DNA from: Eubacteriales bacterium
GTDB taxonomy: Bacteria; Bacillota; Clostridia; Oscillospirales; CAG-272
Length of the DNA stretch: 33,811 nucleotides
NCBI GenBank assembly: GCA_045547015.1
Contig: JAZQDY010000066.1
Coordinates: 1-33,811, forward strand
Direction: 5' to 3'
Part shown: piece after piece, positions 155 to 32,729 of the stretch
Position numbering within the stretch: position 1 is the stretch's first letter
Layout: each line of letters begins with the position of its first letter
The notes under the pieces: generated by a model
Told to the model about the DNA's origin: nothing
Database searches by the model: none
Seen by the model: only the letters and a program-made list of their open reading frames with translations
Translations under genes and position numbers: made by a program

Positions 155-156
155 AG

Positions 157-11232: not shown

Positions 11233-11234
11233 AT

Positions 11235-11699: not shown

Positions 11700-13318
11700 A
11701 TTTCCTCCGAATGACTGAGATGAGAATAACGTGCCATAATTGCCTGTGCCACGCGGATACCGTCTACTGCCGCACTCATAATACCGCCGGCGTAACCGGC
11801 GCCCTCACCGCACGGATAGATGCGGTCATAGCCGAGTGCCAGGAGTGTACCATCCCTGCGAAGAATCCGCACCGGAGCTGAGGTACGGGTTTCCACCCCG
11901 GTCATGGGAACATCTGCAGCATCAAAACCGCGGATTTTTTTGCCAAAAGCAGGAAGTCCCGCCTCCAGCATCGAAGTCACGAACGGCGGCAGAATTTTAT
12001 GAAAATCCGTCATTACAACATCACCGCCGCGGTAGCTGGGCAGAATACGCGCCGGCACTGTTCCCTGCTTTCCATGCAGAAAATCGCCTACCGTCTGACA
12101 AGGGGCAGCGTAGGTCCTGCCGCCTGCCGCAAAAGCAGCCTGTTCCAGCGCGCGCTGGAATTCTATCGCCCGGAGCGGGTCCGCGCCGTAATCGGCAGGA
12201 TGCACAGATACAGCAAGCGCCGCATTAGCATTACGTCCATCACGGGCACGGCAGCTCATGCCGTTGGTTACCACGCCGCCTACCTCCGAGGCAGCAGCAA
12301 CTACTTCTCCCCCGGGGCACATGCAGAAAGAATACACGCCGCGCTCCCCGCTTCGAAGAGAGAGGGCGTAATCTGCATGCGCCAGACCGTATTGACCGAC
12401 AAGAGATCCATACATAGCTTCGTCAATCTCCGCCTGCAGATGCTCAATACGCACGCCTACAGAAAACGGCTTTGCTTCCACAGAAAAGCCTGATGTAAGA
12501 AGCTCCGCATAGAGATCCCGTGCACTGTGTCCGGCGGCAAGCACCAATGCACCGAAAGGGATTCGTTCCTGTCCTACGTAAAGGTGATCGGAAGAAATGC
12601 GTTCCGCACAGGCGTTGTACAAAATCTCTCCGCCCAGCGAACGGATACGGGCATCGGCCCGCTGTATCACATCGCGGAGAATATCTGTGCCGATATGGGG
12701 CTTTGCACGCCAGAGAATATCTTCCGGCGCTCCCAGCGCCACCAGCTGTTCCAACACGTAGCCGCATCGTTCATCACTGATACGCGTAGTAAGTTTTCCG
12801 TCGGAAAACGTACCTGCCCCGCCGGCACCAAACTGAATATTTGTACCCGGATCAAGATCACCGCCGCTGGAAAAAGTGTTCACCGCACGGATTCTCTCTG
12901 CAATGGATCCGCCGCGCTCCAAAACAAGCGGACGAAAACCGTGTTCGGCCAAAAGCAGCGCAGCGAAAATGCCGGCAGGTCCAAACCCGATGATTACCGG
13001 ACGTGCCTGCATAGGTTCACTGCCGTGAGGGACAAAAAGCGGTACACGGTCACTGAACTTGATTCCCAGTTTCTTAAGATACGTCTCGTCTGCCGGGCGG
13101 AGGCACTCTGCTTCCGCATAAACGGAGCATACGAAGGTTATATTTTCACGTCTTCTGGCATCAATGGATTTCCGGTGCATTTCAAGCCGCTCCGGATCAC
13201 CGAATACTTTCGATTTTCTGAGGATCCGCCGCGCCGCATCAAAAGCAGCCGCATCTGGCTCTGCAACTGGAATACGGATGTTTTCAATCAGCAGACGGCG
13301 CGTTGTCGTTTTCATCAA
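11696..13318 (-). CDS. FAD-dependent protein (COG2509-type uncharacterised dehydrogenase)
   Basis: Dinucleotide-binding motif VIIGFGPAGIFAALLLAEHGFRPLVLERG. Length of about 540 aa and the C-terminal GEGAGYAGGI motif are typical of this family (from memory). Confidence 0.75.
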   Translation of the reverse strand: MMKTTTRRLLIENIRIPVAEPDAAAFDAARRILRKSKVFGDPERLEMHRKSIDARRRENITFVCSVYAEAECLRPADETYLKKLGIKFSDRVPLFVPHGSEPMQARPVIIGFGPAGIFAALLLAEHGFRPLVLERGGSIAERIRAVNTFSSGGDLDPGTNIQFGAGGAGTFSDGKLTTRISDERCGYVLEQLVALGAPEDILWRAKPHIGTDILRDVIQRADARIRSLGGEILYNACAERISSDHLYVGQERIPFGALVLAAGHSARDLYAELLTSGFSVEAKPFSVGVRIEHLQAEIDEAMYGSLVGQYGLAHADYALSLRSGERGVYSFCMCPGGEVVAAASEVGGVVTNGMSCRARDGRNANAALAVSVHPADYGADPLRAIEFQRALEQAAFAAGGRTYAAPCQTVGDFLHGKQGTVPARILPSYRGGDVVMTDFHKILPPFVTSMLEAGLPAFGKKIRGFDAADVPMTGVETRTSAPVRILRRDGTLLALGYDRIYPCGEGAGYAGGIMSAAVDGIRVAQAIMARYSHLSHSEEM

Positions 13319-14586
13319 TTCAATCTCACCTGCACCTGATATTCGCCGACCTCATATACGTTTCTTGCACTTGCGGAATCGATATAAATGGAAGCAGTTT
13401 TCGTAATCACGCCGGATGTATCCGCAGAATACCCGCTCAGATCCACAACGGCAGTGATATCCGAGGTTTTCAGCCACGCCAGCTGTTCCAGTGCACCGCG
13501 CACCATAACTGTAAGCGAGGGCGTGAGTATCTCATAATCAATGCCCACAGCACCGGTAACATCCAGATCCGTCACGGTATAAAACTTCGTGTACGTATTT
13601 ACATGGGTCACATTGACAACAGCACTTTCCGTACCGTCCATCACCTCGATGCCATCGGGAAGATTCAGCATTACCTGCTGAGTGATATTGCCGATAATCA
13701 TTTTCTCATCCAATACGGTGATTTCAAAAGATTCCATTCCATGAAGGACTGCGGGATCCCCGCGAAACGTCAACTGCAGCGGATCAATGGTTATCTTCAC
13801 CGTATCGTCACTGTAGTATCCGTGTTTATATCCAACGGAAAGCGGAAGTGTTTTCGTAGTATACACGGGGATATCTACCGTAACCTCCGTACGTGCCAGA
13901 CGAAGATAGGGATTTGTAATCTGGTTTCCGTTTTTATCCATCAGCACAAGCTGTCCGGATGCCTTCATGGCAGAAGTTACATTGCCCAATGCCAGAGAAA
14001 CCTCCGCATATGCCACATCTTCCAAAGCAGTTTTCGGGCCGGTAACAATAACTGTATCGTATTCAGGCTTAAGTTCTCCCATTTGCAGCTGGCTTTCTAT
14101 AGTAAACGCCGTAAGTTTTGCACGGATTTCCGTAACAACACTGGATTTTTCATCCACATACACCTGCACCGTATTCTGTGAAAGTGCCTCCATGGAAACG
14201 CCGGAAGGAAGCTTCACATCCACAGCCACGGAATGCATGCCCGGTGTATTAATCTGGGAAAGATCCGCCGAAACCGAAAAATCGTCCGCTGATAATTTGT
14301 CGATCAAACTCTTTTGTCCGATAATAGTGATATCAACCGTTGCACCGTAACCGCTGTAAACAGAGAGGCCCTGTTCTCCTTCAAGAATAGCTGTATTGGA
14401 AAGGGAAACGTCAACGGAATGAAATGTTTCCGTATATTCGGGACTGTCCACCTGCATAACGTAAAACCAAATGACAAACGCTATCAAAAGACAGAGAATC
14501 TTTGCCGTCCAATCCCCGGAACGGCGGGGCGAGGCGGTTTGCGTCTGTGCATCCAGTACGGTGGCATTTTTCTTTTCACTGTTCAC
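13315..14586 (-). CDS. cdaR: YbbR-domain protein CdaR (regulator of diadenylate cyclase)
   Basis: One N-terminal TM helix (ILCLLIAFVIWFYV) followed by repeated beta-rich YbbR-like modules. It lies immediately downstream of cdaA. GGGAGGGA sits 6 nt before the GTG at 14584-14586; the track's ATG at 14607 has no SD. Confidence 0.8.
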   Translation of the reverse strand: MNSEKKNATVLDAQTQTASPRRSGDWTAKILCLLIAFVIWFYVMQVDSPEYTETFHSVDVSLSNTAILEGEQGLSVYSGYGATVDITIIGQKSLIDKLSADDFSVSADLSQINTPGMHSVAVDVKLPSGVSMEALSQNTVQVYVDEKSSVVTEIRAKLTAFTIESQLQMGELKPEYDTVIVTGPKTALEDVAYAEVSLALGNVTSAMKASGQLVLMDKNGNQITNPYLRLARTEVTVDIPVYTTKTLPLSVGYKHGYYSDDTVKITIDPLQLTFRGDPAVLHGMESFEITVLDEKMIIGNITQQVMLNLPDGIEVMDGTESAVVNVTHVNTYTKFYTVTDLDVTGAVGIDYEILTPSLTVMVRGALEQLAWLKTSDITAVVDLSGYSADTSGVITKTASIYIDSASARNVYEVGEYQVQVRLN

Positions 14587-15523
14587 TGTTCGTCCCTCCC
14601 ATCTCATTGTTTGCGGCAGTCACATTGCCATCCTCGGAAGATGTCTGCTTTTCCTCAGCGGATTTGCCGCGTCCAGTCCTCCCCTTCTTGAAGCGGCTGA
14701 CTGCTTTTACCATGTGTGACTCGCTCTCCGGGATCAGATATGACTGCAGTTCTGTTTTCAAGGATTTCGCCTGGAATCCCCGTTTCAGAATACCGTCCCG
14801 TGCCACGGAAATCACACCCGTTTCCTCAGATACAACAACGACAAGCGCATCACTGTTCTCACTCATGCCGATAGCGGCACGGTGACGGGTGCCCAAGTCC
14901 TGGGTAATATCGGATTTGGCAGACAGGGGCAAAAGACATCCTGCAGCATACAGTCTGCCGTCGCGGACGATAACAGCACCGTCGTGAAGAGGCGATTTAT
15001 CAAAAAATATGTTCTTAATCAAAAAAGAGGAAGGATCTGCGTTGATAACCGTGCCGGTCAGGATAAGATCACCAAGTTTAGTGGTACCTTCCATAACAAT
15101 CAGGGCACCGGTGTGTTTTGCAGACATATCGGAAACAGCAGTGCAGACAGCATCAATCAAAGCTTGTGCAGCGGCATCACTTTTCTGCTCAGAAATACTG
15201 CGAAAACCGCGCAATGATTCTCCGCCCATTTTTTCCAGTGCGGAACGAAGCTCCGGCTGGAATACGATAACCAGGGCAATCAGACCGACCTGGAACACAT
15301 TCGTCAGAATATATTGGAGCGCGTGCATCTCCAAAAGATCGCTGAGAATCAAAAACAGAATAATGAAAGCAACGCCGAGGGCCAGTTTTCCTGCCCGTCG
15401 ATCCCGTATGAATTTATAAACACAGTACAGGAGAAATGCAACACAAATGATATCCACGACATCAAGAAAAGATATGCGAATCCGTGAAAAGCTGCCCAAA
15501 GCGTCTGTCAACCAACTCGGCAC
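14576..15523 (-). CDS. cdaA: diadenylate cyclase CdaA
   Basis: Three N-terminal TM helices, then DAC-domain motifs PLHDGAVIV and GTRHRAAIGMSE. GTG start with GGGGGA 8 nt upstream. It has a C-terminal Lys/Gly/Ser-rich tail of about 40 aa. Confidence 0.9.
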   Translation of the reverse strand: MPSWLTDALGSFSRIRISFLDVVDIICVAFLLYCVYKFIRDRRAGKLALGVAFIILFLILSDLLEMHALQYILTNVFQVGLIALVIVFQPELRSALEKMGGESLRGFRSISEQKSDAAAQALIDAVCTAVSDMSAKHTGALIVMEGTTKLGDLILTGTVINADPSSFLIKNIFFDKSPLHDGAVIVRDGRLYAAGCLLPLSAKSDITQDLGTRHRAAIGMSENSDALVVVVSEETGVISVARDGILKRGFQAKSLKTELQSYLIPESESHMVKAVSRFKKGRTGRGKSAEEKQTSSEDGNVTAANNEMGGTNSEQ

Positions 15524-15559
15524 GATTGAAGTCCCCCATCATAAATGTATTCAGTATAT

Positions 15560-15588
15560 ATTTTATCACATTCCCACGACTTTTTCAA
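15560..15588 (-). promoter_or_regulatory. sigma-A type promoter for cdaA
   Basis: Minus strand reads TTGAAA (15583-15588), a 17-nt spacer, then TGaTAAAAT, an extended -10 (TAAAAT at 15560-15565). Confidence 0.5.
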
Positions 15589-15765
15589 ACCTTATTTTTG
15601 TGATTTTTATAAATTTTCTCGAAAATCACGGCTTTTTTCAATAGTTTCACAAAAGAGCGGAAAGAATAGACAACCGGGAACAATATTGTTACACATATTC
15701 CGCCGGTTTCAGCATACATTAATCGCAGCAAAAACCGCAATTTCACACCAAAGGACGTACCGTAA

Positions 15766-16947
15766 ATGAAAAACAGATCCATGCCGTTCAAGGCGGCGTT
15801 ATCATTGATTCTTGCCGCAGCCGCCCTTATGGGCGTGGCTGATTACTGCATAGAAGACACACTCTCCTTACGCATAGAAGATACCTTGCCTGCCTCCTCG
15901 CTGATCCGGGTGGAAGCGGCAGACACAGTTCTTGCCGCTTCCACCGTCTCCAAACACACGCATGTTGCCAAATTATTCGGCGTTTTGCCGCTGAAAGAAA
16001 TCACTGTACGCCGATACGGAGATATTTCCCTGTGCCCGGGCGGCATGGCATTCGGCGCAAAAATGTTCACAGATGGGCTAATCGTGGTAGGCTTTTCCAA
16101 TGTTGACTGCACTGGTGCCTCTCAGCAGCCGGCATACGATGCCGGCATACGCATGCATGACGTCATTCTGAAAATCAACAACACAGTTGTTACCTCCGCG
16201 CTTCACATGTCCGAAATCGTCAGCAGTTCAAACGGAGCTCCTCTGGAATTCACCGTACGGCGCGGCAAAGAAGAGCTTCTCTGCACGGTTGTCCCCTCCT
16301 TTTCTGAAAGTGAACAGACATATAAAAGCGGTCTGTGGGTGCGGGATAATACGGCAGGCATCGGGACGATTACGTTCATCGATCCGGATACGGGCGCTTT
16401 TGCCGGACTTGGCCACGGCATCTGCGACGGTGAAACAGGTGCTCTGCTCCCGTTATCCCGGGGAATGATTGCCCGTGTATCCATCAGCGGCGTACAGAAA
16501 GGTGCAGGCGGTGCTCCAGGCGAGTTGATGGGGTATTTCGCCTCCGGAAAAATCGGCACTCTTTTGGGCAATACGACAGCGGGTGTATACGGAATTCTTA
16601 CTGAACTGCCGGAGGGTGTATCGCAAAGTACAGCGATTCCCATTGCCCTGAAAGATGAAATTACCGACGGCAAAGCACAGCTATACTGCACACTGGATGA
16701 AACGGGCGTACACAGTTACGAGGTTTCGATACGAAAAATCCGGAACGCCGCCGATCATAAGTGCATGGAGATCACCGTAACGGATCCCGCACTTATCGAA
16801 AAAACAGGCGGTATCGTCCAAGGGATGTCGGGCAGTCCGCTCATTCAAAATGGCAGGCTGATCGGTGCCGTGACGCACGTTCTCATTTCCGATCCAACGA
16901 AAGGATACGGAATTTTTATCGAAAATATGCTGGATATGGCGGAGTGA
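15766..16947 (+). CDS. spoIVB: SpoIVB peptidase (S55 signalling serine protease)
   Basis: N-terminal membrane anchor, a PDZ-like segment (GIRMHDVILKINNTVV), a catalytic His context (FAGLGHGICD) and a Ser context (VQGMSGSPLIQNGRLIGAVTHVL). Confidence 0.9.
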   Translation: MKNRSMPFKAALSLILAAAALMGVADYCIEDTLSLRIEDTLPASSLIRVEAADTVLAASTVSKHTHVAKLFGVLPLKEITVRRYGDISLCPGGMAFGAKMFTDGLIVVGFSNVDCTGASQQPAYDAGIRMHDVILKINNTVVTSALHMSEIVSSSNGAPLEFTVRRGKEELLCTVVPSFSESEQTYKSGLWVRDNTAGIGTITFIDPDTGAFAGLGHGICDGETGALLPLSRGMIARVSISGVQKGAGGAPGELMGYFASGKIGTLLGNTTAGVYGILTELPEGVSQSTAIPIALKDEITDGKAQLYCTLDETGVHSYEVSIRKIRNAADHKCMEITVTDPALIEKTGGIVQGMSGSPLIQNGRLIGAVTHVLISDPTKGYGIFIENMLDMAE

Positions 16948-16953
16948 AAATGG

Positions 16954-16982
16954 AAGCCGAGGCGGTGCGCCTCGGCTTTTTC
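16954..16982 (+). terminator. intrinsic terminator after spoIVB
   Basis: GCCGAGGCG-gtg-CGCCTCGGC (16956-16976) is a 9-bp perfect stem with a 3-nt loop, followed by TTTTT. Confidence 0.8.
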
Positions 16983-17052
16983 CTGTCACGCATACATAGT
17001 GGTCGCTCAAAATTTCTGTCCCAAATACGCACATTTTTGTCCCCGTTATTTC

Positions 17053-18016: not shown

Positions 18017-18790
18017 ATGTACTACAACAAAGTAGAAATATGCGGCGTAAACACAGCCAAACTTGCCACCCTCACAAGCGATGAAAAGCGGGAGCTTCTC
18101 CTGCGATGCAAGGCAGGTGATACGGAAGCCAGGCAAAAACTGATCGACGGTAATCTCAGGCTGGTTCTCAGCATCATTCAGCGATTCACCAACCGCAGAG
18201 AGAATCTGGATGACCTGTTTCAGGTAGGCTGCATCGGGCTTATCAAAGCCGTGGATAATTTCAACACAGAACTGGACGTAAAATTCTCCACGTACGCTGT
18301 TCCGATGATTATAGGCGAAGTGCGCCGCTATCTCAGGGACAACAACACAATCCGCGTCAGCCGTTCCATAAGAGATCTGGCGTACCGTGCGCTGCAGATG
18401 CGTGAGCAGCTGTCCCGCACGGCATCCACAGAACCCACTCTTGCGCAAATTGCCAAAGAGCTTGGGGAGAAGGAAGAAGCAGTACACCAGGCCATTGAGG
18501 CGATAGTAGAGCCGGTATCCCTGTATGAACCCATATATAACGACGGGGGCGATTCCATTTACGTAATCGATCAGATCAGCGATACCACCTCCACAGACGA
18601 AGCATGGCTGGAAAATATCGCACTGAAGGAAGCCATGAAAAAACTCACCGACCGGGAAAAGAAAATCATACAAATGCGTTTTTATAAAGGAAAAACGCAA
18701 ATGGAGATCGCTGAGGAGATCGGTATTTCCCAGGCACAGGTATCACGGCTCGAAAAAGGGGCGCTGGAGCATATCCGCAAGCAGATGTAG
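18017..18790 (+). CDS. sigG: sporulation sigma factor SigG
   Basis: The N-terminus MYYNKVEICGVNTAKL..., and the segments GNLRLVLSIIQRFTNRRENLDDLFQVGCIGLIKAVDNF and VKFSTYAVPMIIGEVRRYLRDNNTIRVSRS, are near-identical to B. subtilis SigG as I remember it. Confidence 0.92.
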   Translation: MYYNKVEICGVNTAKLATLTSDEKRELLLRCKAGDTEARQKLIDGNLRLVLSIIQRFTNRRENLDDLFQVGCIGLIKAVDNFNTELDVKFSTYAVPMIIGEVRRYLRDNNTIRVSRSIRDLAYRALQMREQLSRTASTEPTLAQIAKELGEKEEAVHQAIEAIVEPVSLYEPIYNDGGDSIYVIDQISDTTSTDEAWLENIALKEAMKKLTDREKKIIQMRFYKGKTQMEIAEEIGISQAQVSRLEKGALEHIRKQM

Positions 18791-18791: not shown

Positions 18792-18825
18792 AAAAAACGG
18801 TGGACAATCGATCCACCGTTTTTTA
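18792..18825. terminator. bidirectional intrinsic terminator between sigG and the convergent 1332-aa gene
   Basis: AAAAA-ACGGTGGA-caatcga-TCCACCGT-TTTTT is an 8-bp stem with an A-tract on the left and a T-tract on the right. It lies between two convergent stop codons (18790 and 18837). Confidence 0.8.
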
Positions 18826-18836: not shown

Positions 18837-21800
18837 TTATTTACCTGTTTTTTTTCGGTCGTTGACAAGCATGCCGATAAGTATTGCACACAAAATGATC
18901 GCGTTGGTGGCAAACGGTCCCCAGGAGCGTGTAATGATTCCGTAGGCGCTCCAAAGACAAACGTTAATCAGACTCCACGCTCTATACATTTTGCCGTTCT
19001 CCTGGGAAATGGAAGCAACGTACGGAATGGCCGTAAGAATCGGCAAAATAACAACCCAGGAGTGATTAAATATCAGATTGGCTGAAACGCTGGACAGGAC
19101 AAACAGGACGAGCAGCCATTTGGGAATTTTCTTGTTTTTCACACAGAAAAAGAAATTGATGACTGCCATGATGGCCCCGAGTCCGCAGGAAATGCCGCCG
19201 CTTACGTTGTCCACGACCACATAACTCAACGTCATGAAAAAGTTGGACAGAAACGCAAGCACCAGAATGAGATGCATATTACGTCCCTTGAACAGCATGG
19301 AAAGCGCTATACACAAGAGAGACAGTGCACTGAGAACAAAGGAAATAATCTGCATACGGTCCGAAAAACCGGGCTTATCATTTTCCTGTCCATCATCGGG
19401 AATGTCTGTAATTTCACCGGTCATATCCGCTGTCGCCGCGGGGGCGGCCGTTTCGGTAGTTTCCGGTGCGTCGGAAACCGCCGGCTCCTCTGGCATGGTT
19501 TTCAGAAGAGAGATGGTATCCACTACCGTAATCTTATCGCTGTCGTTTGTTCCCAGATTATAGGTTGTGAGCTTCAGCTCGCTTTCAGAAACGTCAATAG
19601 GGGTCAGATTTCTCGTAGCCGCCGTGCCGGTAACTGCCGCATAGATATTTTCGAACTGCACTTTATTCACCTGAGAACCGGAGCTGGTAGCACCGGTAAC
19701 GTACAGAATTCCATCGGGCGCGATGGCCTTCACAGGCTTTGAGGAGGTCTTCAAATCCGTATGTACCGTACCTGTGGCATCCTTCCAGCTTATGAATTTC
19801 GGCTCCATTGTGCCGTCCTCGTAAATGTAGGAACCGCTTTCGTACGGCGTAATGATCGAAGCATCGATATAATTGCCGCTTTCATCCATGGCAGGCTTCA
19901 GGATATGGGTACGTGTATAGGAATGATCGTGACCGGAAAGAACCAGATCCACGCCGTTTTCATAAAGGATGGGCAGCAGATACTCTCTTATATTGGTATA
20001 CGCATACTGCTCCGTTCTGTTATAAATACCGGTGGACTCGTTTACCGTATAGTTGCCGTGATAACTGGAGCCAAAAGGCGAATGATGATACAAAGCAATG
20101 GTCCAGTCAAAGGTCTGATCCTTCGTTTCCTCCATCACTCGTGCGATGAAAGCGCCGTGCTCCTCCGCCGCCGCTTTATCCTTAGCCCTGGCTGCTTCCG
20201 CGCCGGAGTTGTCCTTGAACGTATTCGTGTTCAGAACGATAAAGAGCACAGAATTATAAGTAAAGTAATAGTCAGCGCTGTGCAGATAAGAGCCGGCGCT
20301 GGTTTCATAACTCGCGCCGTAGTACGTACCATCCGGTTTCGTCAGCATATTGGGCAGATTTACGTGGAAAGGATAGATGGCATACGGCTGGTTGTCATGG
20401 TTACCGAGTGTGGTTACCGTAGGAAGAGAAAGCAATTCCTCGTGGTTGGAATACGCATCCCACTGCAATTCATGACCCTGGTAATTCTGCAGATATGTAT
20501 TGAGCTGATCGCCGGCAGACATGAGAAAATCCACCCCGTCAAACTCAGGGGCACTCATCAACTGGGAAAGGGTTCGGCCCCAGGCCTCGCCGTCCCCGGA
20601 AATGCACTCCCAGTTCTTAGAGGAATCCCCGCCGTATCCGCGTCCGATCTGGGGATCACCGGCAAAAGCAAACGTAAACGAATCAGAACCGCCTGTGGTA
20701 ATCGTATGAATCTCTCCAAGGTCCGTTCCATTGGCAAGCTGATAGCAGTATTCCGTATCCGGTTCAAGGTTTGCAATGGTTGCCTTGTTGGCAAAGTAAC
20801 TTTCTTTTTTCGACTCCGTTCTTTCGGCGGTCACCTGAGTGGCACCTGCCGGGAACGCACCGCCGTTCATATCGGACTTTTTTGCGTATGTAACTGTACC
20901 GTCCGCCTCGGAGACGGAATACCAGGTGAAGTTCAGTTCAGATTCATCCGCACCGAGCTGCAAAACGATATTTGTATGTTTTGGCGGCTGGGTAAACTCC
21001 ACAAGCGTCGTTGCTGCTTTTTCTGCACCGGCGGCGTGAATCTTTACAACAATATCCTGGGTTTCCGGGTCAAACTGCGCCGGATCGTATGCCAGTTTCG
21101 TAAAAGGAGCATCCTGCTGATCCACCAGCAAAAGCGTGTGTGCGGACTCAATGTAACTGGGAATTTTGTCCGGCGATACTGTATACGGCACAGTATACAT
21201 CATAACCGTGAAGGTGCCCTCACCGTCCGCAGGAAACATATCTTCGGTAACTTCCACGTACGCTGTTTCACCAATCACCGTACCGGCATCGGTCGCAACA
21301 AGATCGCGCAGCTCTGCGGCAGGCGCATATGGCAGCGGTGTTGTAAGATTGCGCCAGAACATGGCTTTCACACTTTTTGCGTTCTGGTAAGTGGAAAGGA
21401 ACGGCAATATATCGTATTCGGCAAAAGCAAGGGCGTTATGGGCATTCACGTACAGCGCCTTCTGACTGCCCACAAGACGGCCGATCATTTTCCCGTCCGC
21501 GTCGTAGGCAGCCAGCATAGGCGTAACTGCTCCACCTGCAGACGAGTCCGCAGCCATCTGGATCTTTATGGGATCGGCAACACTGGTAGTCAAGGAGAAA
21601 TTGTCAAGCTGGAAATGAATCTTCTGTCTTTCTTCCCCGACATCGTAGGATTTATCATGAAAAACAAGGCAGAGCAAATTATTCCGGCTGGTTCCCCATG
21701 TGTTGACGCGCTTGAAATCCAGGCTCTTTTCGGCACCGCTTTCATCGCGCACCGTACCCACAGCCGTATCGCCGCCGGGCTCATTGGTGATCTCGATGTG

Positions 21801-22835
21801 ATACCATTTTCCGCTTTCAAACTGGTCTGTTGAAAACTCAAATCCTTTTTTGCCTCGTTCCGTGGCGAGATTATTATCGTCATAGACAGAAAGATGTACT
21901 GTTTCCTTGGTCGTTCCGTACACCTTATAAAAATCAAACGATACCGTATATCCCTGCGGCAGTTTCGGCACATTAAAACCAGTGGAGTAGACAGCTCCGG
22001 TTGGATTCCGGCGAGCGGTATTTTCCGTTTTGTCTGAAGCAAGGACACTCCAGTCCATGGCGGAATAATCAACATCCAGCACCGTATTTCCACTGCCGTC
22101 TGCGGCAGATTTTACTGATACAGGAACACCGTAGGTAGTGTATCCCTCTGAAAGCGTGGGGGTCTTCTCTTCGTAATCTTCACGGAAAAGTTCTTTCTCA
22201 TGCGCCGCATCCAGTTTTTCAGGAACAAGCACGTTCACAGCCGGCACAGCAGATACGGCAAACAGATCATCCAGAAGATACGTACCTTCTGCAGAGCCGA
22301 TACCGGTGATGCGGACAGCATTTTTGTATACAGTTTGCGATCCGGCAGTATACAGAACAGCCGTCTCCATCCACTGCTTTCTCACCGGATTGTAAAGCTG
22401 AGCTGCGGAGGAACCGTTCTTCAGCACACATGTAAATGCACCGTCCGTGCCTACGGCAAAATTCTCAGGCAAAAGGAACACAGCGCTGTTTCCGGCATCA
22501 TCGTACAACGCAATCTCAAGCTGGCTGCCGGCAAAACGTTTCTCCGCTTCAAAAATAACGGCAGAGGAATCACCGAGGCGAAACACGGATGTGGAATAGA
22601 CAACGCTTGCGCCGCCGGGCACGGACAGCTTACCGTCTCCGCTGACGGCAGTAACGGAAATATTGCCGCTGCTATCCGCAGGCGAAGGGTTTAGGATATC
22701 GAAGTCAATACTCAGTTCAACACCGCCGCGGACTGCCGCCGTACCACCGTTTGCCAATACAGCCGGCACACACAGGGGGATGAGCAGACACAGTGTCAGG
22801 AAGAGCGACGCATAACGAGATAATTTCATAGTCAT
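18837..22835 (-). CDS. secreted multidomain metallophosphoesterase (purple-acid-phosphatase-like) fused to a C-terminal YgjV-family membrane domain
   Basis: Signal peptide MTMKLSRYASLFLTLCLLIPLCVPAVLANG. About 590 aa follow that I cannot place. Next is an FN3-like PAP N-domain (ELNFTWYS...TEYCYQL). Five metallophosphoesterase blocks occur in canonical order: FAGDPQIG, SAGDQLN, LGNHDN, LYHHSPF, SGHDHSYTR. A Pro/Thr/Glu/Ala linker spans aa 1113-1160. Aa 1161-1325 (nt 18861-19355) are multi-TM with the YgjV-like layout (...LPILTAIPYVASI..K..R.....W..Y...). SD AAGGGAG lies 6 nt upstream. Confidence 0.85.
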   Translation of the reverse strand: MTMKLSRYASLFLTLCLLIPLCVPAVLANGGTAAVRGGVELSIDFDILNPSPADSSGNISVTAVSGDGKLSVPGGASVVYSTSVFRLGDSSAVIFEAEKRFAGSQLEIALYDDAGNSAVFLLPENFAVGTDGAFTCVLKNGSSAAQLYNPVRKQWMETAVLYTAGSQTVYKNAVRITGIGSAEGTYLLDDLFAVSAVPAVNVLVPEKLDAAHEKELFREDYEEKTPTLSEGYTTYGVPVSVKSAADGSGNTVLDVDYSAMDWSVLASDKTENTARRNPTGAVYSTGFNVPKLPQGYTVSFDFYKVYGTTKETVHLSVYDDNNLATERGKKGFEFSTDQFESGKWYHIEITNEPGGDTAVGTVRDESGAEKSLDFKRVNTWGTSRNNLLCLVFHDKSYDVGEERQKIHFQLDNFSLTTSVADPIKIQMAADSSAGGAVTPMLAAYDADGKMIGRLVGSQKALYVNAHNALAFAEYDILPFLSTYQNAKSVKAMFWRNLTTPLPYAPAAELRDLVATDAGTVIGETAYVEVTEDMFPADGEGTFTVMMYTVPYTVSPDKIPSYIESAHTLLLVDQQDAPFTKLAYDPAQFDPETQDIVVKIHAAGAEKAATTLVEFTQPPKHTNIVLQLGADESELNFTWYSVSEADGTVTYAKKSDMNGGAFPAGATQVTAERTESKKESYFANKATIANLEPDTEYCYQLANGTDLGEIHTITTGGSDSFTFAFAGDPQIGRGYGGDSSKNWECISGDGEAWGRTLSQLMSAPEFDGVDFLMSAGDQLNTYLQNYQGHELQWDAYSNHEELLSLPTVTTLGNHDNQPYAIYPFHVNLPNMLTKPDGTYYGASYETSAGSYLHSADYYFTYNSVLFIVLNTNTFKDNSGAEAARAKDKAAAEEHGAFIARVMEETKDQTFDWTIALYHHSPFGSSYHGNYTVNESTGIYNRTEQYAYTNIREYLLPILYENGVDLVLSGHDHSYTRTHILKPAMDESGNYIDASIITPYESGSYIYEDGTMEPKFISWKDATGTVHTDLKTSSKPVKAIAPDGILYVTGATSSGSQVNKVQFENIYAAVTGTAATRNLTPIDVSESELKLTTYNLGTNDSDKITVVDTISLLKTMPEEPAVSDAPETTETAAPAATADMTGEITDIPDDGQENDKPGFSDRMQIISFVLSALSLLCIALSMLFKGRNMHLILVLAFLSNFFMTLSYVVVDNVSGGISCGLGAIMAVINFFFCVKNKKIPKWLLVLFVLSSVSANLIFNHSWVVILPILTAIPYVASISQENGKMYRAWSLINVCLWSAYGIITRSWGPFATNAIILCAILIGMLVNDRKKTGK

Positions 22836-22856: not shown

Positions 22857-23933
22857 TTACTTTAAAATATTAAGGAAACGCGCCACTTCTTTGCCGATCT
22901 TTTCCGCCATCCGGAGAAAACCAATGTCCGTTGGATGGACGCCGTCTACCAGTTCGCAGCCAGTATAGCAGTCGGAAAAGTACTCTTTTCCATCAATAAA
23001 AACAACGTTCCGGTCCCCTGCCGCCTTGGCGCGCTCTACCGTATCTTTCACGATCCGGCGGCGTTCTTCATTGTCAGCGGATCCGGTGTAATCAGGCCGG
23101 GAAGCGCAGATAATCGGCAGGTCCGGCTGTTTATCCCGAATGATGCGGAACATTCTTTCGTGCGTCTTTCGGAGAAACTCCGGGTCCGGCGCGTTATGAT
23201 CGTAATCGTATACGAACACGCTCATGTGGAGGGCAGCGATATATTCGGCGACTGCATCCTCTGCCTTTGCGTTTCCGTTGAAGCCAAGATTCAAGAAATC
23301 ACAATCCAGCATTCGGGAAATAATTGCCTCATACGTATTTCCGGGGCGGGACGCACAGCCGCCGTGGGTAATGGAAGAACCGTAATACACCACCGGCTTT
23401 TCATACGTATATGGGCGCGGCGGCTCCACCACCGCATCCGCGTCCAAATACAGATACAGCCTGGACACTTCGCTGAACAAGGGGAAATTCAAAGTCAGCT
23501 CCCGCATCTTTTTTTCCGGAAACGTATACTCGGACTCAAAACCGTTTTCAATAGTGTACGGCGGGATAAACGTATGGGCATACATTTCCCTGCCGTTTTC
23601 CCTGTTATAGAGGTCAAATCCTGCGCATCCGGTAAGCGCATCGTGTGAGTATTTCCATATACACGGCATCTCCGCGTGAATGGCAATATAAGAAGAATCG
23701 GTTCTGAATCTGAGCCGTGCACCGGTTGTGTTGGCGTGCAGCCAGTGCACGTTTCTGCTGACAGCCAGTGCAGCATCCTCAGGCATACGGCGGAATTTGT
23801 CATCCGGCGCATCCGTTGGCGGAATAATACCGTGCAGTTGAAAAGGGGCTTTCCGCACGTCATACACGGTCACGTTCTCCCGGCTGATCTTACACTCCAC
23901 TTTCAGATTCGGATCAATTTGAGAAATGTCCAT
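22857..23933 (-). CDS. SGNH/GDSL hydrolase with GxDLY-type N-terminal domain (copy 1), no signal peptide
   Basis: GFDLY motif in the N-domain. SGNH blocks are VVYYGSSITHGG (nucleophile Ser), LGFNGNAKAE (block III Asn) and VDGVHPTD (Asp/His). About 50% identical by eye to the 27532-28578 product. Confidence 0.85.
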   Translation of the reverse strand: MDISQIDPNLKVECKISRENVTVYDVRKAPFQLHGIIPPTDAPDDKFRRMPEDAALAVSRNVHWLHANTTGARLRFRTDSSYIAIHAEMPCIWKYSHDALTGCAGFDLYNRENGREMYAHTFIPPYTIENGFESEYTFPEKKMRELTLNFPLFSEVSRLYLYLDADAVVEPPRPYTYEKPVVYYGSSITHGGCASRPGNTYEAIISRMLDCDFLNLGFNGNAKAEDAVAEYIAALHMSVFVYDYDHNAPDPEFLRKTHERMFRIIRDKQPDLPIICASRPDYTGSADNEERRRIVKDTVERAKAAGDRNVVFIDGKEYFSDCYTGCELVDGVHPTDIGFLRMAEKIGKEVARFLNILK

Positions 23934-23946: not shown

Positions 23947-24822
23947 TCAAAGAATCTTCTCACCGTCAAAGAGAATCACACCGGTACCGGAACCCATTTT
24001 TCCGCCGGCTTTCAGATATTCTATGTAGTTTCGTCTGAGGCGGGTATCCGTGGGTGCCTTATCCAGCGTTTCGGGTCCCTCGTATACCATATTGAAGATC
24101 CGCCAGAAATCACTGCCGGTCTCCCTCTCCTTGGTGCTGACAATATCAAAAAGAGCAGCGAATTTCCGCGTATTGGATCCTTCCGGATACATCACGATGG
24201 TAGGCGGATACAGAAGCCAGGAATAGCACACGATCTTCAGAATACCGTCTTTCAAACTGTCCTTATTGAACTCATACAGTTTTTTGAAAGAATCCATGAC
24301 AGATTCCGGCGTCAAAGGTCCGCTGGACGGAATATGGCAGCTGAAACAGGCATCGCCATTTTTCAGAATTCCTTTATAGTCTTCGCCGCCCCACGTATGC
24401 TTATCGAACTGCAGACGACCGAAAGGCATACGCTCGCAGGTATAGAACATTTTAAACCAGTCCACGAACGTGCCCCAAATGCCGTATACGTCGTGGCACT
24501 CGATCAGCTTATATTTCAGATCTGTCACAGACTCCCAATACATATGCTCCGGGAGGTTTTTCTGTTTATAGATATAGTACAGCGATTTTGTACACAGAAT
24601 CCAGAAAACCATATCGGAAGTGTATCGGTGCACGCCGGATTCCTTCGAAACGTTTTCAAGAATCGGAACAAATGAGTTGTCCGTTCCGCAGTACATAGCG
24701 TCCATGGCTTCGTAAATGCCGGTCAGTGCTTTTGGGGACGACAGGATCTTCCGGTAGGCCGCCTCCAAACAATCCGCAGCTTCTTCGGGAAATCCTGTTT
24801 TTTCACAAAAATCTCTTACCAT
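23947..24822 (-). CDS. acyltransferase-like protein (GNAT-like C-terminal domain / DUF5596-type N-domain), copy 1
   Basis: 291 aa from the ATG at 24820-24822, with AGGAGG 6 nt upstream; the track's TTG at 24840 is unlikely. It is about 70% identical by eye to the 26610-27488 product. The family assignment rests on my recollection of the 'acyltransferase domain-containing protein' family (CHIPSSGPLTPESV..., ...GTGVILFDG) and needs an HMM check. Confidence 0.7.
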   Translation of the reverse strand: MVRDFCEKTGFPEEAADCLEAAYRKILSSPKALTGIYEAMDAMYCGTDNSFVPILENVSKESGVHRYTSDMVFWILCTKSLYYIYKQKNLPEHMYWESVTDLKYKLIECHDVYGIWGTFVDWFKMFYTCERMPFGRLQFDKHTWGGEDYKGILKNGDACFSCHIPSSGPLTPESVMDSFKKLYEFNKDSLKDGILKIVCYSWLLYPPTIVMYPEGSNTRKFAALFDIVSTKERETGSDFWRIFNMVYEGPETLDKAPTDTRLRRNYIEYLKAGGKMGSGTGVILFDGEKIL

Positions 24823-24878: not shown

Positions 24879-24906
24879 ATTATATCACTATTTTTCATGG
24901 TGTCAA
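24879..24906 (-). promoter_or_regulatory. near-consensus sigma-A promoter for the AT1-SGNH1-phosphoesterase operon
   Basis: Minus strand reads TTGACA (24901-24906), a 16-nt spacer, then TGaTATAAT, an extended -10 (TATAAT at 24879-24884), about 57 nt upstream of the ATG at 24822. Confidence 0.65.
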
Positions 24907-25282: not shown

Positions 25283-26347
25283 TTATTCAAATAAAGCTTT
25301 AAAATCTTCGTAATCACGGATGAAATCAAATACGTCCCTCTTGCTCATTTCCTTGATATTATCGAGATGCGTTCCTTCTGAATGATACCACTCTCTTGAA
25401 TCGATGGTAATGTGATCAAACAACGGCGCTGTATACCTATACTCACCGAGTGCGATTGAATCAATCAAATCGTACTCTTTCACATGATATATTGCTTCTT
25501 TCAAGAATTTTATTGCTGATTCAGCGTTTCCTTCGGATGCCGCAATTTCAGCTTTTCTGAATTTGATGTGACTCATCAAGTGGTGATATTCGCAGTAATT
25601 CCCGTCTGGAATCATTGCTTTAATGATACTTTCTGCGGCTGTACAGGTATCCTTGTTATCTCCAATATTGCTCCAGAGCAGCACATGGATAAGAGCTCCG
25701 AAATGTTTTTCAAGATACTTCTGTTTATGACAGATTTGTTCATCACCATCAAGACAACTAACAAGCAATCCTTCTTTCTCTGTCGGATCTATTTTTGTTT
25801 CGGGGAATAAATCCAAATAACGTCTTGCTTCCTTTTTGTCTCCTTTTCCACAGAAACAGCCAACAATGTACCAAATAGCCCGCGCTTTTATTTCGTCATC
25901 ATCTGTATTTCCGATTACCCTATCAAATATCTTTATGACTCGTTCTCGTACCTCTTCAAACTCTTCTCCATTAGGTAATGTCGCTATAGCTAAGTTCCAA
26001 GTATCTATAGCATAACAAGTCAGCCACTTCATATCAGACGGGTATTCATGGGTGGCAGTTTCTGCGATCAGTAAACATGCCTCCGGGTAGTTTGTTTTTG
26101 CTGCTTCATCGTACAATCTTTCAAGTTCTTCCAGTCGGGTGTCAGATTCTTTTGCTCCCAGCAGTTCATCCGTAGATACGCCTAATGCTTTTGAAAGCGG
26201 AACAATCAGCGCAAGATCAGGCATTGTCAGACCACACTCCCATTTGCTGACCGACTTATAGGTAACACCGAGATATTCTGCCAGTTTCTCCTGTGTGAGA
26301 TCATTCTTCTTCCGCAGTTCCTTGATTCTTAGTCCAATATTCTTCAT
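25283..26347 (-). CDS. XRE-family HTH regulator with an about 290-aa helical, TPR-like C-terminal domain (RNPP-like architecture)
   Basis: The N-terminus IKELRKKNDLTQEKLAEYLGVTYKSVSKWECGLTMPDLALIVPLSKALGVSTDELLG is a canonical HTH_3/XRE domain. The remainder is helix-rich with repeated hydrophobic/acidic periodicity. SD AAGGAGAA is present. Codon usage is AT-rich, unlike the neighbours. Confidence 0.88.
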   Translation of the reverse strand: MKNIGLRIKELRKKNDLTQEKLAEYLGVTYKSVSKWECGLTMPDLALIVPLSKALGVSTDELLGAKESDTRLEELERLYDEAAKTNYPEACLLIAETATHEYPSDMKWLTCYAIDTWNLAIATLPNGEEFEEVRERVIKIFDRVIGNTDDDEIKARAIWYIVGCFCGKGDKKEARRYLDLFPETKIDPTEKEGLLVSCLDGDEQICHKQKYLEKHFGALIHVLLWSNIGDNKDTCTAAESIIKAMIPDGNYCEYHHLMSHIKFRKAEIAASEGNAESAIKFLKEAIYHVKEYDLIDSIALGEYRYTAPLFDHITIDSREWYHSEGTHLDNIKEMSKRDVFDFIRDYEDFKALFE

Positions 26348-26609: not shown

Positions 26610-27488
26610 TCAGAGTATTTTTTCTCCGTCAAACAGGATTACCCCCGTACCGCTGCCCATCTTATTACCCGCCTTCAGATACGCCGCATAGTTCCGTCTC
26701 AGGCGTGTATCCAAAGGCACACGGTCCAGCGTTTCCGGCCCTTCGTACATCGTATTAAAGATCCGCCAAAAATCCACGGAGGTGGAGCGCTCTTGCATAC
26801 CGATTATATCGAAAAGCTCATAAAATTTCCGGGTGTTGGAACCCTCCGGGTATAACTCAATGGTGGGAGGATACAAAAGTCCGGTAGTAGTCACGATTTT
26901 CAGAATACCGTCCGCAAGGCTGTCCTTATGGTATTCGTACAGTTTTCCGATAGAATCCATGACAGATTCCGGTGTCAGCGGTCCGCTGGACGGAATATGG
27001 CAGTAAAAGTACGTATCGCCTTTTTTCAGAATGCCGCGATAATCTTCCCCGTCCCACGCACGCAGATCGTACTGCAGCCGACCGAACGTCATACGATCAC
27101 AGGTAAAAAAGCGGTCGAACCACTGGGTAAAAACACCCCAGATCCCGTACACGGAATAACACTCCATCAGCTTGTATTTGAGATCCATCATGGCATCCCA
27201 GTACAGATGCTCCGGGATATTCTTCTGCTTATAAATATAGTACAGCGGTTTGGCACAGTGAATCCAGAACACCAGATCGGAAGTGTATCTGTGCACGCCG
27301 GATTTTTTTGATACGGTCTCAAGGCTCTCCGCAACGGACGGGCGTGGTTGAGCGGAATACACCTTATCCATCGCTTCATAGATCTCGTGCACAGCCGAAG
27401 GGGACTGCAGAATCTTTCTGTACGCCGTCTCAAGGCACACTACGGCCTCTTCGGGGAAGCCGAGTTTTTCACAAAAATCCTTTACCAT
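26610..27488 (-). CDS. acyltransferase-like protein (same family as 23947-24822), copy 2
   Basis: 292 aa, MVKDFCEKLGFPEEA...KMGSGTGVILFDGEKIL. GGAG lies 7 nt upstream of the ATG. It is a paralogue of copy 1. Confidence 0.7.
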   Translation of the reverse strand: MVKDFCEKLGFPEEAVVCLETAYRKILQSPSAVHEIYEAMDKVYSAQPRPSVAESLETVSKKSGVHRYTSDLVFWIHCAKPLYYIYKQKNIPEHLYWDAMMDLKYKLMECYSVYGIWGVFTQWFDRFFTCDRMTFGRLQYDLRAWDGEDYRGILKKGDTYFYCHIPSSGPLTPESVMDSIGKLYEYHKDSLADGILKIVTTTGLLYPPTIELYPEGSNTRKFYELFDIIGMQERSTSVDFWRIFNTMYEGPETLDRVPLDTRLRRNYAAYLKAGNKMGSGTGVILFDGEKIL

Positions 27489-27531: not shown

Positions 27532-28578
27532 TTAATCCAGAATATCCTTCATGACATTCTCCAGAGCTGCCGCCATGGAGGCAAATCCGTAATCGGTAGG
27601 ATGACAGCCGTCCACCGTACCCTCATTGCCGCACAATGCCATAAGTGCCGGTCCATCCAGGAAGTATACGTTTTTATCTCCGGCGGCAAGTGCGTTCTTA
27701 TAGGTCGTTTCCACACAGCGGCGGCGGTCCACTTCCGGTTCAAGCAAATAAATCTTCGGTCGGCTCATCATAATGACCGGTATGTCCGGATGCTTGGCGC
27801 GCACGGCTTTAAACAGCTTTTCATGGGTCGCCCAAAGATGCTCGGGCGTGGGTGCGTTGTGATCGTAATCCAGCACAAACATGGACATATCAAGACCGCT
27901 GAGATACTCAATCATGGTATCTTCTGCTCTGGCATTTCCGGAAAAGCCAAGATTTATATAATCCATATTGAAACGTCTCTCCAGAACGCTCTGATAACTT
28001 CTGCCGGGACGGGAGGCGCAGCCGCCCTGGGTGATGGAAGAACCATAGTATACCACCGGTTTTTCGTTTCTGTACGGTTTGGCAGCCTGTACCACGGCAT
28101 CCTCCTGGAGACCGATATATACCGCGTTCACATCACTGTAAAGGGGGAGATTAATAGTAATTTCGCGAAGCTGCTTTGAGGGCAGCGGAACTTCCCCGTC
28201 AAATCCTTCAGTGATAGAAAAAGGAGGAATAAATGTCTTCACAAACACGCCGTCCGCATACAGATCAAATCCGATGGAGCCGGTGAGTGCAAAATGCGAC
28301 ATTTTACCCAGTGCTTCTTTCATTTCTGCGTGAATAACCACATAAGGGCTGTCCGTCACAAAGCGGATACGGCCGCCGGCCGTATTGGCGTGAAGCCGCC
28401 AGACGCCGTCGCTGACGGATTTGGCAACGGATTCCGGCATACGGCGGTATTTACCGTCCTCCCAGTACACGCCGTGAATGGAAAACGGTGCTTTCTGCGG
28501 ATCGTAGAACCGCATATCCTCCCGCTGAACTGTAGTTGGCACGGCAAAGTTCTTGTCAATGCTTGCGATGTCAGACAT
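27532..28578 (-). CDS. SGNH/GDSL hydrolase with GxDLY-type N-terminal domain (copy 2), no signal peptide
   Basis: GFDLY motif, VVYYGSSITQGG, LGFSGNARAE, VDGCHPTD. I use the ATG at 28576-28578 (GGAGG 8 nt upstream) rather than the track start at 28605. Confidence 0.85.
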   Translation of the reverse strand: MSDIASIDKNFAVPTTVQREDMRFYDPQKAPFSIHGVYWEDGKYRRMPESVAKSVSDGVWRLHANTAGGRIRFVTDSPYVVIHAEMKEALGKMSHFALTGSIGFDLYADGVFVKTFIPPFSITEGFDGEVPLPSKQLREITINLPLYSDVNAVYIGLQEDAVVQAAKPYRNEKPVVYYGSSITQGGCASRPGRSYQSVLERRFNMDYINLGFSGNARAEDTMIEYLSGLDMSMFVLDYDHNAPTPEHLWATHEKLFKAVRAKHPDIPVIMMSRPKIYLLEPEVDRRRCVETTYKNALAAGDKNVYFLDGPALMALCGNEGTVDGCHPTDYGFASMAAALENVMKDILD

Positions 28579-28608
28579 TTTTTCTTCCTCCGATATAAAT
28601 ATCATTGT

Positions 28609-29157
28609 TTATTTTATTTCACCGGCAGACACCTCGGTCTGCTCTTTTTTGTTCCGTTTCCAATCGTAGCGAAGCATGGCAATGAGAAGTGACGAAATGC
28701 CCATCAGATCACCCAGACAGGAAGCATACGCACGACATGAAAAATTGTAAATAAACCAGAACGGACCGCCAAGAATACAGACACGGCGTATGTTCTTTTC
28801 CTTCGTCAGCCAAAGCCCGCAGGTCTGAAAGAGCACCGCGGCAATGGGAAACAGACTGAACACGTTTTCGTATACCGTAAGTCCCGCCGCCACAATGAAC
28901 GAATTCACCGCAATCAGGATAGGAATACGATACTTTTTTACAAAAGGCGTTTCCTTCTTTCCGGCAACAAAGGTAGAAATCATAGCAGAAAAATCCATGA
29001 CCGCCCCTTCAAAGGCGAACAGTAATACGTACTGCAGAATAAACAGTGCTCTTGCCGTCATATTAACCGCGATAATTCTGCCCCTCGTTTTTTGCTGGTA
29101 TCCTAAAAGAAGAACAACGATACCGACGATTCCGACGATTTGACCGAGTGTTTCCAT
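28609..29157 (-). CDS. YgjV-family inner-membrane protein (stand-alone)
   Basis: Multi-TM protein. ...FPIAAVLFQTCGLWLTKEKNIRRVCILGGPFWFIYNF... parallels E. coli YgjV (LPVIGT...K....R......W.IHNF) as I remember it. The start is set to METLGQ (29155-29157) because a good promoter (29204-29232) lies inside the track's longer N-terminal extension. Confidence 0.7.
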   Translation of the reverse strand: METLGQIVGIVGIVVLLLGYQQKTRGRIIAVNMTARALFILQYVLLFAFEGAVMDFSAMISTFVAGKKETPFVKKYRIPILIAVNSFIVAAGLTVYENVFSLFPIAAVLFQTCGLWLTKEKNIRRVCILGGPFWFIYNFSCRAYASCLGDLMGISSLLIAMLRYDWKRNKKEQTEVSAGEIK

Positions 29158-32562: not shown

Positions 32563-32597
32563 AAAAATGTGTCCCTCTCTATCCGTTCCCGAAATTT

Positions 32598-32630: not shown

Positions 32631-32636
32631 TTTGCG

Positions 32637-32712: not shown

Positions 32713-32729
32713 ATCCAAAACGCCTATAT

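Follow-up and report, generated by a model that had tools for sequence, protein, structure and literature searches.

A genuine fusion of a secreted metallophosphoesterase to a complete YgjV-family membrane domain in a Clostridia lineage, and its possible role in product uptake

An open reading frame (ORF) at 18837-22835 (-) joins a secreted metallophosphoesterase related to purple acid phosphatases (PAPs) to a seven-transmembrane (7-TM) domain of the YgjV family. It lies in a 33,811-nucleotide stretch from an Eubacteriales bacterium of the Clostridia (assembly GCA_045547015.1, contig JAZQDY010000066.1, positions 1 to 33,811; hereafter the window). The fusion is genuine, rare and conserved, and its C-terminal helices are a complete YgjV-family domain, predicted to have a transporter-type fold. 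That the ectoenzyme is coupled to transport, being tethered to the importer of its own product, is a reading to which we give nearly, but not quite, an even chance. The fuller proposal of a single-chain "dephosphorylate-and-import" machine with trapping by N-acylation, which would also provide the first functional assignment for the YgjV family, is put forward more tentatively.

The fusion is genuine and conserved

Translation of the ORF gives 1332 uninterrupted codons with a single terminal stop, and the encoded protein consists, in order, of a signal peptide, a region predicted to be beta-rich, a Pur_ac_phosph_N domain with a Metallophos domain, a linker and a 7-TM Imp-YgjV domain. Curated gathering scores were used as Pfam thresholds, and all three domains exceed theirs: Pur_ac_phosph_N at residues 622-714 (50 bits, cutoff 30), Metallophos at residues 722-973 (44.2 bits, cutoff 21.5) and Imp-YgjV (PF10688) at residues 1169-1323 (37.8 bits, cutoff 23.5, covering model positions 7-153 of 159). 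The signal peptide, recognized from sequence and hydropathy, comprises residues 1-28 (22752-22835 (-)), with K4 and R7, a hydrophobic core and a VLA-N boundary; cleavage probably follows VLA. The N-terminal ectodomain region (residues 29-620; 20976-22751 (-)) is predicted to be mostly beta-strand and matches no Pfam model, even at E = 1. It is followed by the PAP-like catalytic module (residues 621-1112; 19500-20975 (-)), made up of Pur_ac_phosph_N, Metallophos and a conserved C-terminal extension, by an acidic Pro/Thr/Glu/Ala linker of ~48 residues (residues 1113-1160; 19356-19499 (-)) and by the YgjV-family domain, which starts at M1161 (residues 1161-1332; 18840-19355 (-)).

An earlier note on this DNA, made from the sequence alone, had claimed the same uninterrupted frame, the signal peptide with an unassigned stretch of ~590 aa, the linker at nt 19356-19499 and a membrane domain from nt 19355 downwards, which is predicted to contain seven helices. 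These claims are borne out, as is the fused architecture itself. Its "FN3-like" label is to be corrected, the domain being the PAP N-terminal domain.

In a full-length search, the combination of the three Pfam domains recurred in just one protein, P0002, which also has 1332 aa and is 79% identical. It comes from an independent metagenome-assembled genome (MAG; GCA_045544955.1, "Eubacteriales bacterium") with the gene order of the window. Between the two proteins, identity is highest of all in the membrane domain (91%), followed by the Metallophos domain (87%) and the N-terminal region (75-79%), and the signal peptide is the least conserved structured part (45%). The linker is the fastest-evolving segment (proportion of nonsynonymous differences, pN, 0.37); it retains 30% identity, with six gap columns, and its indels are in frame. 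Such an open frame across a near-saturated, divergent linker is as expected of a tether that is translated but free of constraint, and it makes it very unlikely that two genes were merged by error.

The fusion could nevertheless be suspected of being an artefact, either because an error in assembly or sequencing joined two genes or because the annotation alone joins them and hides separate translation from M1161. The junction does coincide with the exact start codon of free-standing homologues, and both sequences come from metagenome assemblies. Against this, the 1332-codon frame recurs in two assemblies that are independent of each other and whose proteins are 79% identical. The linker has changed at 70% of its positions and by several indels, every one of them in frame, and none of its 48 codons is a stop. 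A strong Shine-Dalgarno sequence (AGGGAG) lies 6 nt 5' of the fusion ATG, although none is present 5' of M1161, so that an internal translation start at this methionine is unlikely. An enzyme without the YgjV domain would, moreover, miss the anchor that all its orthologues have. An artefact of either kind is thus highly improbable.

The membrane domain is a complete YgjV-family member

An exhaustive phmmer search with residues 1151-1332 against 1.84 billion representatives gave 282 hits, and the fused architecture is shared by P0002 only. Within these representatives, the architecture is thus confined to this lineage. Apart from P0002, most of the matches listed stand alone, with a length of ~170-180 aa, and M1161 aligns to their first residue, which places the junction at the ancestral start codon. 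Three longer hits were found: P0083 and P0111, each with a C-terminal GNAT domain, and P0066 (323 aa), with a C-terminal extension that has no Pfam match. The fused 172 aa align end to end with free-standing members of the YgjV family, whose prototype is E. coli YgjV (b3090), and share with them seven helices, a predicted N-out/C-in topology and the signature R, N, W and Y of transmembrane helix 6 (TM6). The other members found are ~170-190 aa proteins that are free-standing or carry a C-terminal cytoplasmic GNAT domain, whereas an ectodomain of ~1,160 aa precedes the domain only in the fusion.

The AlphaFold2 (AF2) model of the membrane domain, built from a 30-sequence alignment, has seven helices (predicted local distance difference test score, pLDDT, 91; predicted template modelling score, pTM, 0.85), the number also given by hydropathy. 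The top Foldseek match in the PDB is the vitamin B3 transporter PnuC (4qtn_C; probability 1.00, query-normalised TM-score 0.58) but with an E-value of 0.11, and SemiSWEETs (one three-helix bundle, probability 0.6-0.9) and a SWEET come next. The comparison with PnuC/SWEET-like folds proposed in the earlier note therefore places the model closest to PnuC and then to SemiSWEETs. A small 7-TM facilitator-type architecture is likewise found in PnuC/PnuT and SWEET/SemiSWEET proteins (3+1+3 fold), and PF10688 presumably belongs to the MtN3-like clan of Pfam. SWEETs are facilitators without intrinsic direction. At the sequence level, the membrane-domain profile matched no solved structure in the PDB, and tblastn of the domain against plasmids gave no match.

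Loops 1, 3 and 5 and the C-tail hold most of the Lys and Arg residues (KGR, KNKKIPK, K..R and RKKTGK), and the linker is acidic. This positive-inside pattern predicts an N-out/C-in domain with the ectodomain outside the cell, the arrangement that the earlier note had wished to see confirmed. It agrees with the N-out/C-in topology determined experimentally for E. coli YgjV (PMC4604451).

The membrane domain is under purifying selection

Between the two genomes, the ratio of nonsynonymous to synonymous substitution rates (dN/dS) is 0.093 in the membrane domain, as compared with 0.073 in the catalytic domain, 0.081 in the free-standing YgjV gene of the same cluster, 0.07-0.15 in the N-terminal region and 0.109 over the whole protein. 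The mean identity of the fused domain to 33 free-standing members of its subfamily is 0.34 (median 0.36), and the domain departs from 5 of the 20 positions conserved at 80% or above, where free members depart from 2.5 on average (sd 2.3). The fused domain is no outlier in subfamily conservation, and neither dN/dS nor subfamily conservation shows a relaxed constraint after the fusion. When 175 family members are compared, the residues kept in the fused domain include R1285, N1291, W1295, Y1298, N1198, Y1205, G1213, P1238, Q1278 and D1326. By sequence and by predicted fold, the C-terminal helices are not a generic anchor; they form a full-length, strongly constrained YgjV-family domain.

The fusion lies in a cluster of acyltransferase and hydrolase genes

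The fusion is the last of six cluster genes, all on the (-) strand, in the order free-standing YgjV, SGNH_B, NAT_B, NAT_A, SGNH_A and fusion. NAT_A (23947-24822 (-)) is a cytoplasmic N-acyltransferase (NAT) with the Pfam domains NAT_N and GNAT_C, and SGNH_A (22857-23933 (-)) is a cytoplasmic GxDLY + SGNH (Lipase_GDSL_3) hydrolase in which the Ser (GSS) and the D-x-x-H motif are present. The gaps between NAT_A, SGNH_A and the fusion are 13 and 21 nt, so that the three genes are inferred from their spacing to be co-transcribed. Their transcription unit probably starts at a putative sigma-70-type promoter upstream of NAT_A at 24879-24906 (-), a perfect consensus match which combines TTGACA, a 16-nt spacer, TG and TATAAT (12 of 12 matches, extended TG). 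At the other end, a stem-loop (ACGGTGGA / TCCACCGT; 18792-18824) with A and T runs on either side separates the fusion ORF from a sigma-factor gene that converges on it (18017-18790 (+)), and the two genes share the stem-loop and its T-run. It is a probable bidirectional terminator, judging from its sequence.

The sister unit begins with the free-standing YgjV-family protein (182 aa; 28609-29157 (-); Imp-YgjV, 90.7 bits), followed by SGNH_B (27532-28605 (-)) and NAT_B (26610-27488 (-)), the paralogues of SGNH_A and NAT_A. NAT_A and NAT_B are 72% identical, and SGNH_A and SGNH_B 51%. The NAT and SGNH proteins have no signal peptides. The fused domain and the free-standing YgjV both match Imp-YgjV, as the likeness claimed in the earlier note would have it, but their kinship exists at the profile level only: BLASTP finds no similarity (E = 23), and hhalign of the fused domain against the free-type subfamily gives a probability of 97.7% (E 2.5e-12, 174 aligned columns) at 16% identity. 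The two are distant paralogues (~16% identity), and the free-standing protein has a 90% identical orthologue in the syntenic locus L001. The claim that the sister operon holds the "unfused version" is therefore wrong in detail, the protein belonging to another YgjV subfamily at an identity far below those of the NAT and SGNH pairs, and an origin of the fused domain as a recent duplicate of its neighbour is ruled out. A simple duplication story is thereby weakened, and the two NAT/SGNH pairs have come to lie next to YgjV members of different subfamilies.

The closest PDB relatives of the NAT proteins are the Tcp24/Dbv8 structures 4q36 and 4mfz (E 3e-8 to 1e-7). Tcp24 (Orf11*) and Dbv8 act on glycopeptides, where they transfer the acyl group of acyl-CoA to the amine of a glucosamine. 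The domain pair NAT_N + GNAT_C is common to them and to NAT_A and NAT_B, but the likeness is distant and the window has no glycopeptide cluster. The SGNH proteins match the uncharacterised structure 4lhs at 1e-32 and the acyltransferase SsfX3 (3skv) at 2e-6. NCBIfam has no name for any cluster protein, and Rfam gave no riboswitch or leader that would name a ligand. The fused domain is the sole candidate transporter in its transcription unit, and a NAT gene stands beside the ectoenzyme gene in four genomes. A different arrangement was seen in another Clostridia MAG (L006:500-3077), where genes for a GDPD glycerophosphodiester phosphodiesterase and a serine hydrolase of beta-lactamase type precede that of a NAT homologue (50% identity), a trio of phosphodiesterase, esterase and N-acyltransferase built from other families.

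YgjV genes elsewhere keep carbohydrate-related company

The two hits with a GNAT domain, P0083 (433 aa) and P0111 (434 aa), are single-chain YgjV::GNAT fusions with a C-terminal cytoplasmic GNAT domain (L083:614-1918), and they tie the YgjV family to N-acetyltransferases independently of the window. The surroundings of one such fusion are uninformative (contig of 2.8 kb). Among free members of the fused-type subfamily, two Gfo/Idh/MocA oxidoreductase genes lie directly upstream in two cases, one with GalT, GalK and a ROK regulator and the other with SLH proteins, an aldo-keto reductase and a solute-binding protein. A further context of this subfamily holds GH4 (glycoside hydrolase family 4) and a sugar-phosphate isomerase-type gene (AP_endonuc_2). 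P0006, a free-standing member of the same subfamily at L007:2029-4921 and also in L008 and L009, is encoded 14 nt 3' of a Metallophos gene whose 272-aa product lacks a signal peptide; a GH20 hexosaminidase gene follows downstream, with GH2 nearby. Adjacency of Metallophos and YgjV thus also exists as separate genes, with an enzyme that, on this sequence, is taken to be cytoplasmic.

Of four sampled free-type relatives, one lies with several GH2 genes, one with an aldolase and a PfkB kinase, and two are uninformative. In E. coli K-12, ygjV is on the same strand as, and directly downstream of, uxaC-uxaA (hexuronate catabolism) and next to exuT (L082:5194-8742, corresponding to NC_000913.3 3241193-3244741), a carbohydrate context that appears to have gone unexploited so far. 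Taken together, the PnuC/SWEET-like fold, the YgjV::GNAT fusions, the NAT neighbours and the carbohydrate-gene contexts suggest that YgjV proteins are small facilitators of sugar-like or amino-sugar-like solutes, with uptake driven by cytoplasmic modification.

The enzyme's C-terminus is a slot for surface-retention modules

A genome scan anchored on the neighbouring NAT gene revealed three further loci. L004, from a sheep-colon Clostridia MAG, and L005 share a syntenic block of GlnRS, NAT, enzyme and sigma factor. Their ectoenzymes are orthologues of the fusion (phmmer 3e-232 on the catalytic module, ~50% overall identity); they are 1063-1070 aa long, with no counterpart to the N-terminal 170-200 residues of the fusion. 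A metagenome scan anchored on the ectoenzyme added 61 loci with homologues that are ~30% identical in the catalytic module, and these distant homologues end in LPXTG-type sorting signals (L017, L018 and L076) or, mostly, in cell-wall-binding repeats. The C-termini being interchangeable among orthologues and homologues, the C-terminus of the enzyme is a slot for surface-retention modules, and the order of events is that a single anchor came first and the YgjV domain later. The fusion has the same layout of signal peptide, catalytic ectodomain, low-complexity stalk and C-terminal retention as the surface-anchored ecto-phosphoesterases of Gram-positive bacteria. Those enzymes use a dedicated anchor, be it a single transmembrane helix with a basic tail, an LPXTG signal or cell-wall-binding repeats, whereas the fusion uses a complete 7-TM domain.

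These and several other observations weigh against the coupling of enzyme and transport. The orthologues in L004 and L005 end in a (DPVVPGT)n stalk, one transmembrane helix and KRKK, so that the YgjV domain sits in an ancestral anchor slot and anchoring alone could explain its presence. No YgjV gene lies within 10 kb of the NAT-enzyme pair in L004 or L005, and SGNH is likewise absent there. YgjV, NAT and SGNH genes occur near none of the 61 homologous-enzyme loci, and SGNH or NAT genes near none of the four sampled free-type YgjV relatives, which confines the association of YgjV with NAT and SGNH to one lineage. Changes are also seen within the domain. The TM6 motif, W1295-S-A-Y-G1299 (18939-18953 (-)), departs from the family consensus W-x-x-[Y/H]-[D/N] at its last position, the most conserved polar motif residue of the family, which among the members sampled is Gly in the two fused copies only. 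This residue is D or N in 108 of 123 fused-domain hits and in 51 of 52 free-YgjV hits, and E. coli YgjV has Asn here. Going by where the helices end in the AF2 model, G1299 would sit close to the extracellular end of TM6, towards the ectodomain. Two polar residues conserved in the subfamily are changed as well (Y1245F and H1311N). The need to fold could by itself cause the purifying selection, which leaves transport unproven by selection, and the Foldseek E-value to PnuC is as weak as 0.11. The literature search found no functional study of the YgjV family and no member with a demonstrated substrate.

With the anchor position taken over and a signature residue lost, a purely structural role is a serious rival. 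In such a scenario, the domain would have been captured as a replacement anchor with no relevant transport, and selection would act on folding and membrane insertion only. An enzyme family that swaps its C-terminal anchors so freely, orthologues that manage with a linker and a single helix at the same position and with no YgjV gene nearby, and an architecture confined to one lineage among 1.84 billion representatives, as an accidental read-through fusion would give, all fit this scenario. Other findings do not fit it well. The dN/dS of 0.093 extends over all seven helices and is level with those of the free-standing YgjV and the catalytic domain, the fused domain stays within the range of free members in subfamily conservation, and nearly all family-wide intramembrane polar positions (R1285, N1291, W1295 and N1198) are kept. 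A 7-TM domain is costlier than the single helix it replaced, the paralogous NAT/SGNH unit carries a second YgjV-family gene, and the YgjV::GNAT fusions provide an independent tie to acyltransferases. We regard a role in anchoring alone as less likely than coupling, though as the main rival to it. The earlier note had argued for a functional link as opposed to a mere membrane anchor; the YgjV fold and the constraint speak for that argument, and the plain anchors that orthologues carry in the same slot speak against it.

The ectodomain is a purple-acid-phosphatase-like enzyme

The five metallophosphoesterase blocks claimed in the earlier note are all present (G726-D-P-Q-I-G, G775-D-Q-L-N, G811-N-H-D-N, H917-H918 and G968-H-D-H) and invariant in four orthologues; they supply the residues D727, D776, N779, N812, H813, H917, H969 and H971. 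The single-sequence catalytic module and the whole fusion protein found no match among PDB sequences. A nine-sequence profile of the module matched the plant PAPs 1xzw, 4dhl and 1kbp (E ~1e-7), among them the kidney-bean and sweet-potato enzymes, and also lupin diphosphonucleotide phosphatase and mammalian TRAP. The fusion has the same Pur_ac_phosph_N + Metallophos pair as PAPs and keeps six of their seven metal-ligand positions (D727, D776, N812, H917, H969 and H971). The seventh, the Fe(III)-binding Tyr to which PAPs owe their colour (GDLSY in sweet-potato PAP), is replaced by Asn779 in GDQLN, and N779 is invariant in nine homologues. Identity to PAPs is very low, and the fusion differs from them further in its large N-terminal region and its C-terminal extension. 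Judged by these residues, the enzyme is PAP-like with an apparently intact two-metal site but not a true purple enzyme.

The AF2 model of the N-terminal 592 aa has a pLDDT of 34.5, a low confidence explained by an alignment of two sequences alone. Residues ~200-620 are common to the fusion and the unfused orthologues in L004 and L005, whereas residues 29 to ~200 (22236-22751 (-)) occur in the window and L001 proteins only. The absence of this extra segment of ~170-200 aa, itself predicted to be beta-rich, from L004 and L005 indicates that the lineage gaining the YgjV domain also gained an N-terminal module.

Proposed mechanism and direction of transport

We propose that the ancestral protein was a secreted PAP-type metallophosphoesterase which a Pro-rich linker and a single C-terminal transmembrane helix kept on the outside of the cytoplasmic membrane. 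In the lineage of the window, a whole YgjV-family gene took the place of the tail anchor and stop codon, with the junction at the start codon of that gene, and the enzyme now hangs on a ~48-residue linker from a 7-TM domain of probable PnuC/SWEET-like fold. The fused domain may be more than an anchor and may still work as a facilitator, taking up the dephosphorylated product of the ectodomain, most likely a sugar-like or amino-sugar-like compound. Once inside, the product would be de-esterified by SGNH and N-acylated by NAT and thereby trapped in the cell. Tethering would raise the local product level at the mouth of a low-affinity uniporter. The carbohydrate contexts, the N-acyltransferase genes next door and the YgjV::GNAT fusions all favour a facilitator with cytoplasmic trapping.

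In Haemophilus, NadN and e(P4) dephosphorylate NMN and NAD in the periplasm before uptake through PnuC. The analogy with PnuC drawn in the earlier note is reasonable, as Pnu transporters are likewise facilitators that depend on cytoplasmic trapping, in their case by phosphorylation, a logic demonstrated for PnuT (PMC5749112). PnuC and PnuT differ from the fusion in being separate proteins and in trapping by phosphorylation instead of the acylation proposed here, and the cluster of the fusion holds no nucleotide or vitamin genes.

The same parts could also run in the reverse direction, with NAT and SGNH tailoring an acylated molecule or an envelope precursor, YgjV exporting it and the tethered phosphoesterase processing it outside. 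Tcp24/Dbv8 and SsfX3, to which NAT and SGNH are related in the PDB, are tailoring acyltransferases of natural-product pathways. A YgjV::GNAT fusion would suit trapping and the release of an acetylated product equally well, and PnuC/SWEET-type facilitators have no intrinsic direction (PMC5749112; well established for SWEETs). However, the cluster contains no other biosynthetic genes, the contexts of the family are catabolic (glycoside hydrolases, sugar kinases, aldolases and uxaCA), and SGNH fits 4lhs far better than SsfX3 (1e-32 and 2e-6). Secreted PAP-like enzymes, moreover, typically scavenge. Export is thus improbable, though clearly less so than an artefact, and the probability not taken up by uptake, anchoring, export and artefact is left for mechanisms not considered here.

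Other features of the window

An XRE-type (HTH_3) regulator gene of 354 aa (25283-26347 (-)) separates the two NAT/SGNH units in the window, whereas L001 lacks it and has its NAT genes ~150 nt apart. Divergent from the free-standing YgjV gene, and at the same position in L001, is the gene of a conserved 744-aa protein (29371-31605 (+)) with a perfect-consensus sigma-70 promoter at 29295-29323; its N-terminus is faintly GH20b-like below threshold (E 0.014), and it has no PDB match. A tRNA-Lys (anticodon TTT; 32637-32712 (-)) lies between a GlnRS gene fragment and a metallo-beta-lactamase-fold gene. A 310-aa ORF (31807-32739) overlaps this tRNA, so that the true start of the gene must be further downstream. 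Positions 1-17000 carry Firmicute housekeeping and sporulation genes, namely RelA/SpoT, RecJ, CdaA-YbbR (c-di-AMP), SpoIVB peptidase and a FAD-dependent protein. The flanks are syntenic with L001, which indicates that the cluster is chromosomal and on no obvious mobile element.

Implications for the YgjV family

The finding is a new architecture assembled from known families, and it is chiefly useful as a way into the uncharacterised YgjV family. YgjV proteins are widespread in bacteria, including E. coli K-12, and the fusion, the YgjV::GNAT fusions and the recurrent carbohydrate-gene contexts serve as "Rosetta-stone" clues to them. These clues lead to a testable hypothesis, that of a PnuC/SWEET-type facilitator whose substrate an extracellular phosphoesterase produces and cytoplasmic acylation traps. 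If the coupling fails, the fusion would be a case of a whole transporter domain co-opted as an anchor, and a caution for function prediction from domain fusions. If the coupling holds, a gut anaerobe would possess a compact ectoenzyme and uniporter in one polypeptide, and the single-chain reading, if true, would make it the first case on record of an enzyme fused to a transporter of the PnuC/SWEET fold.

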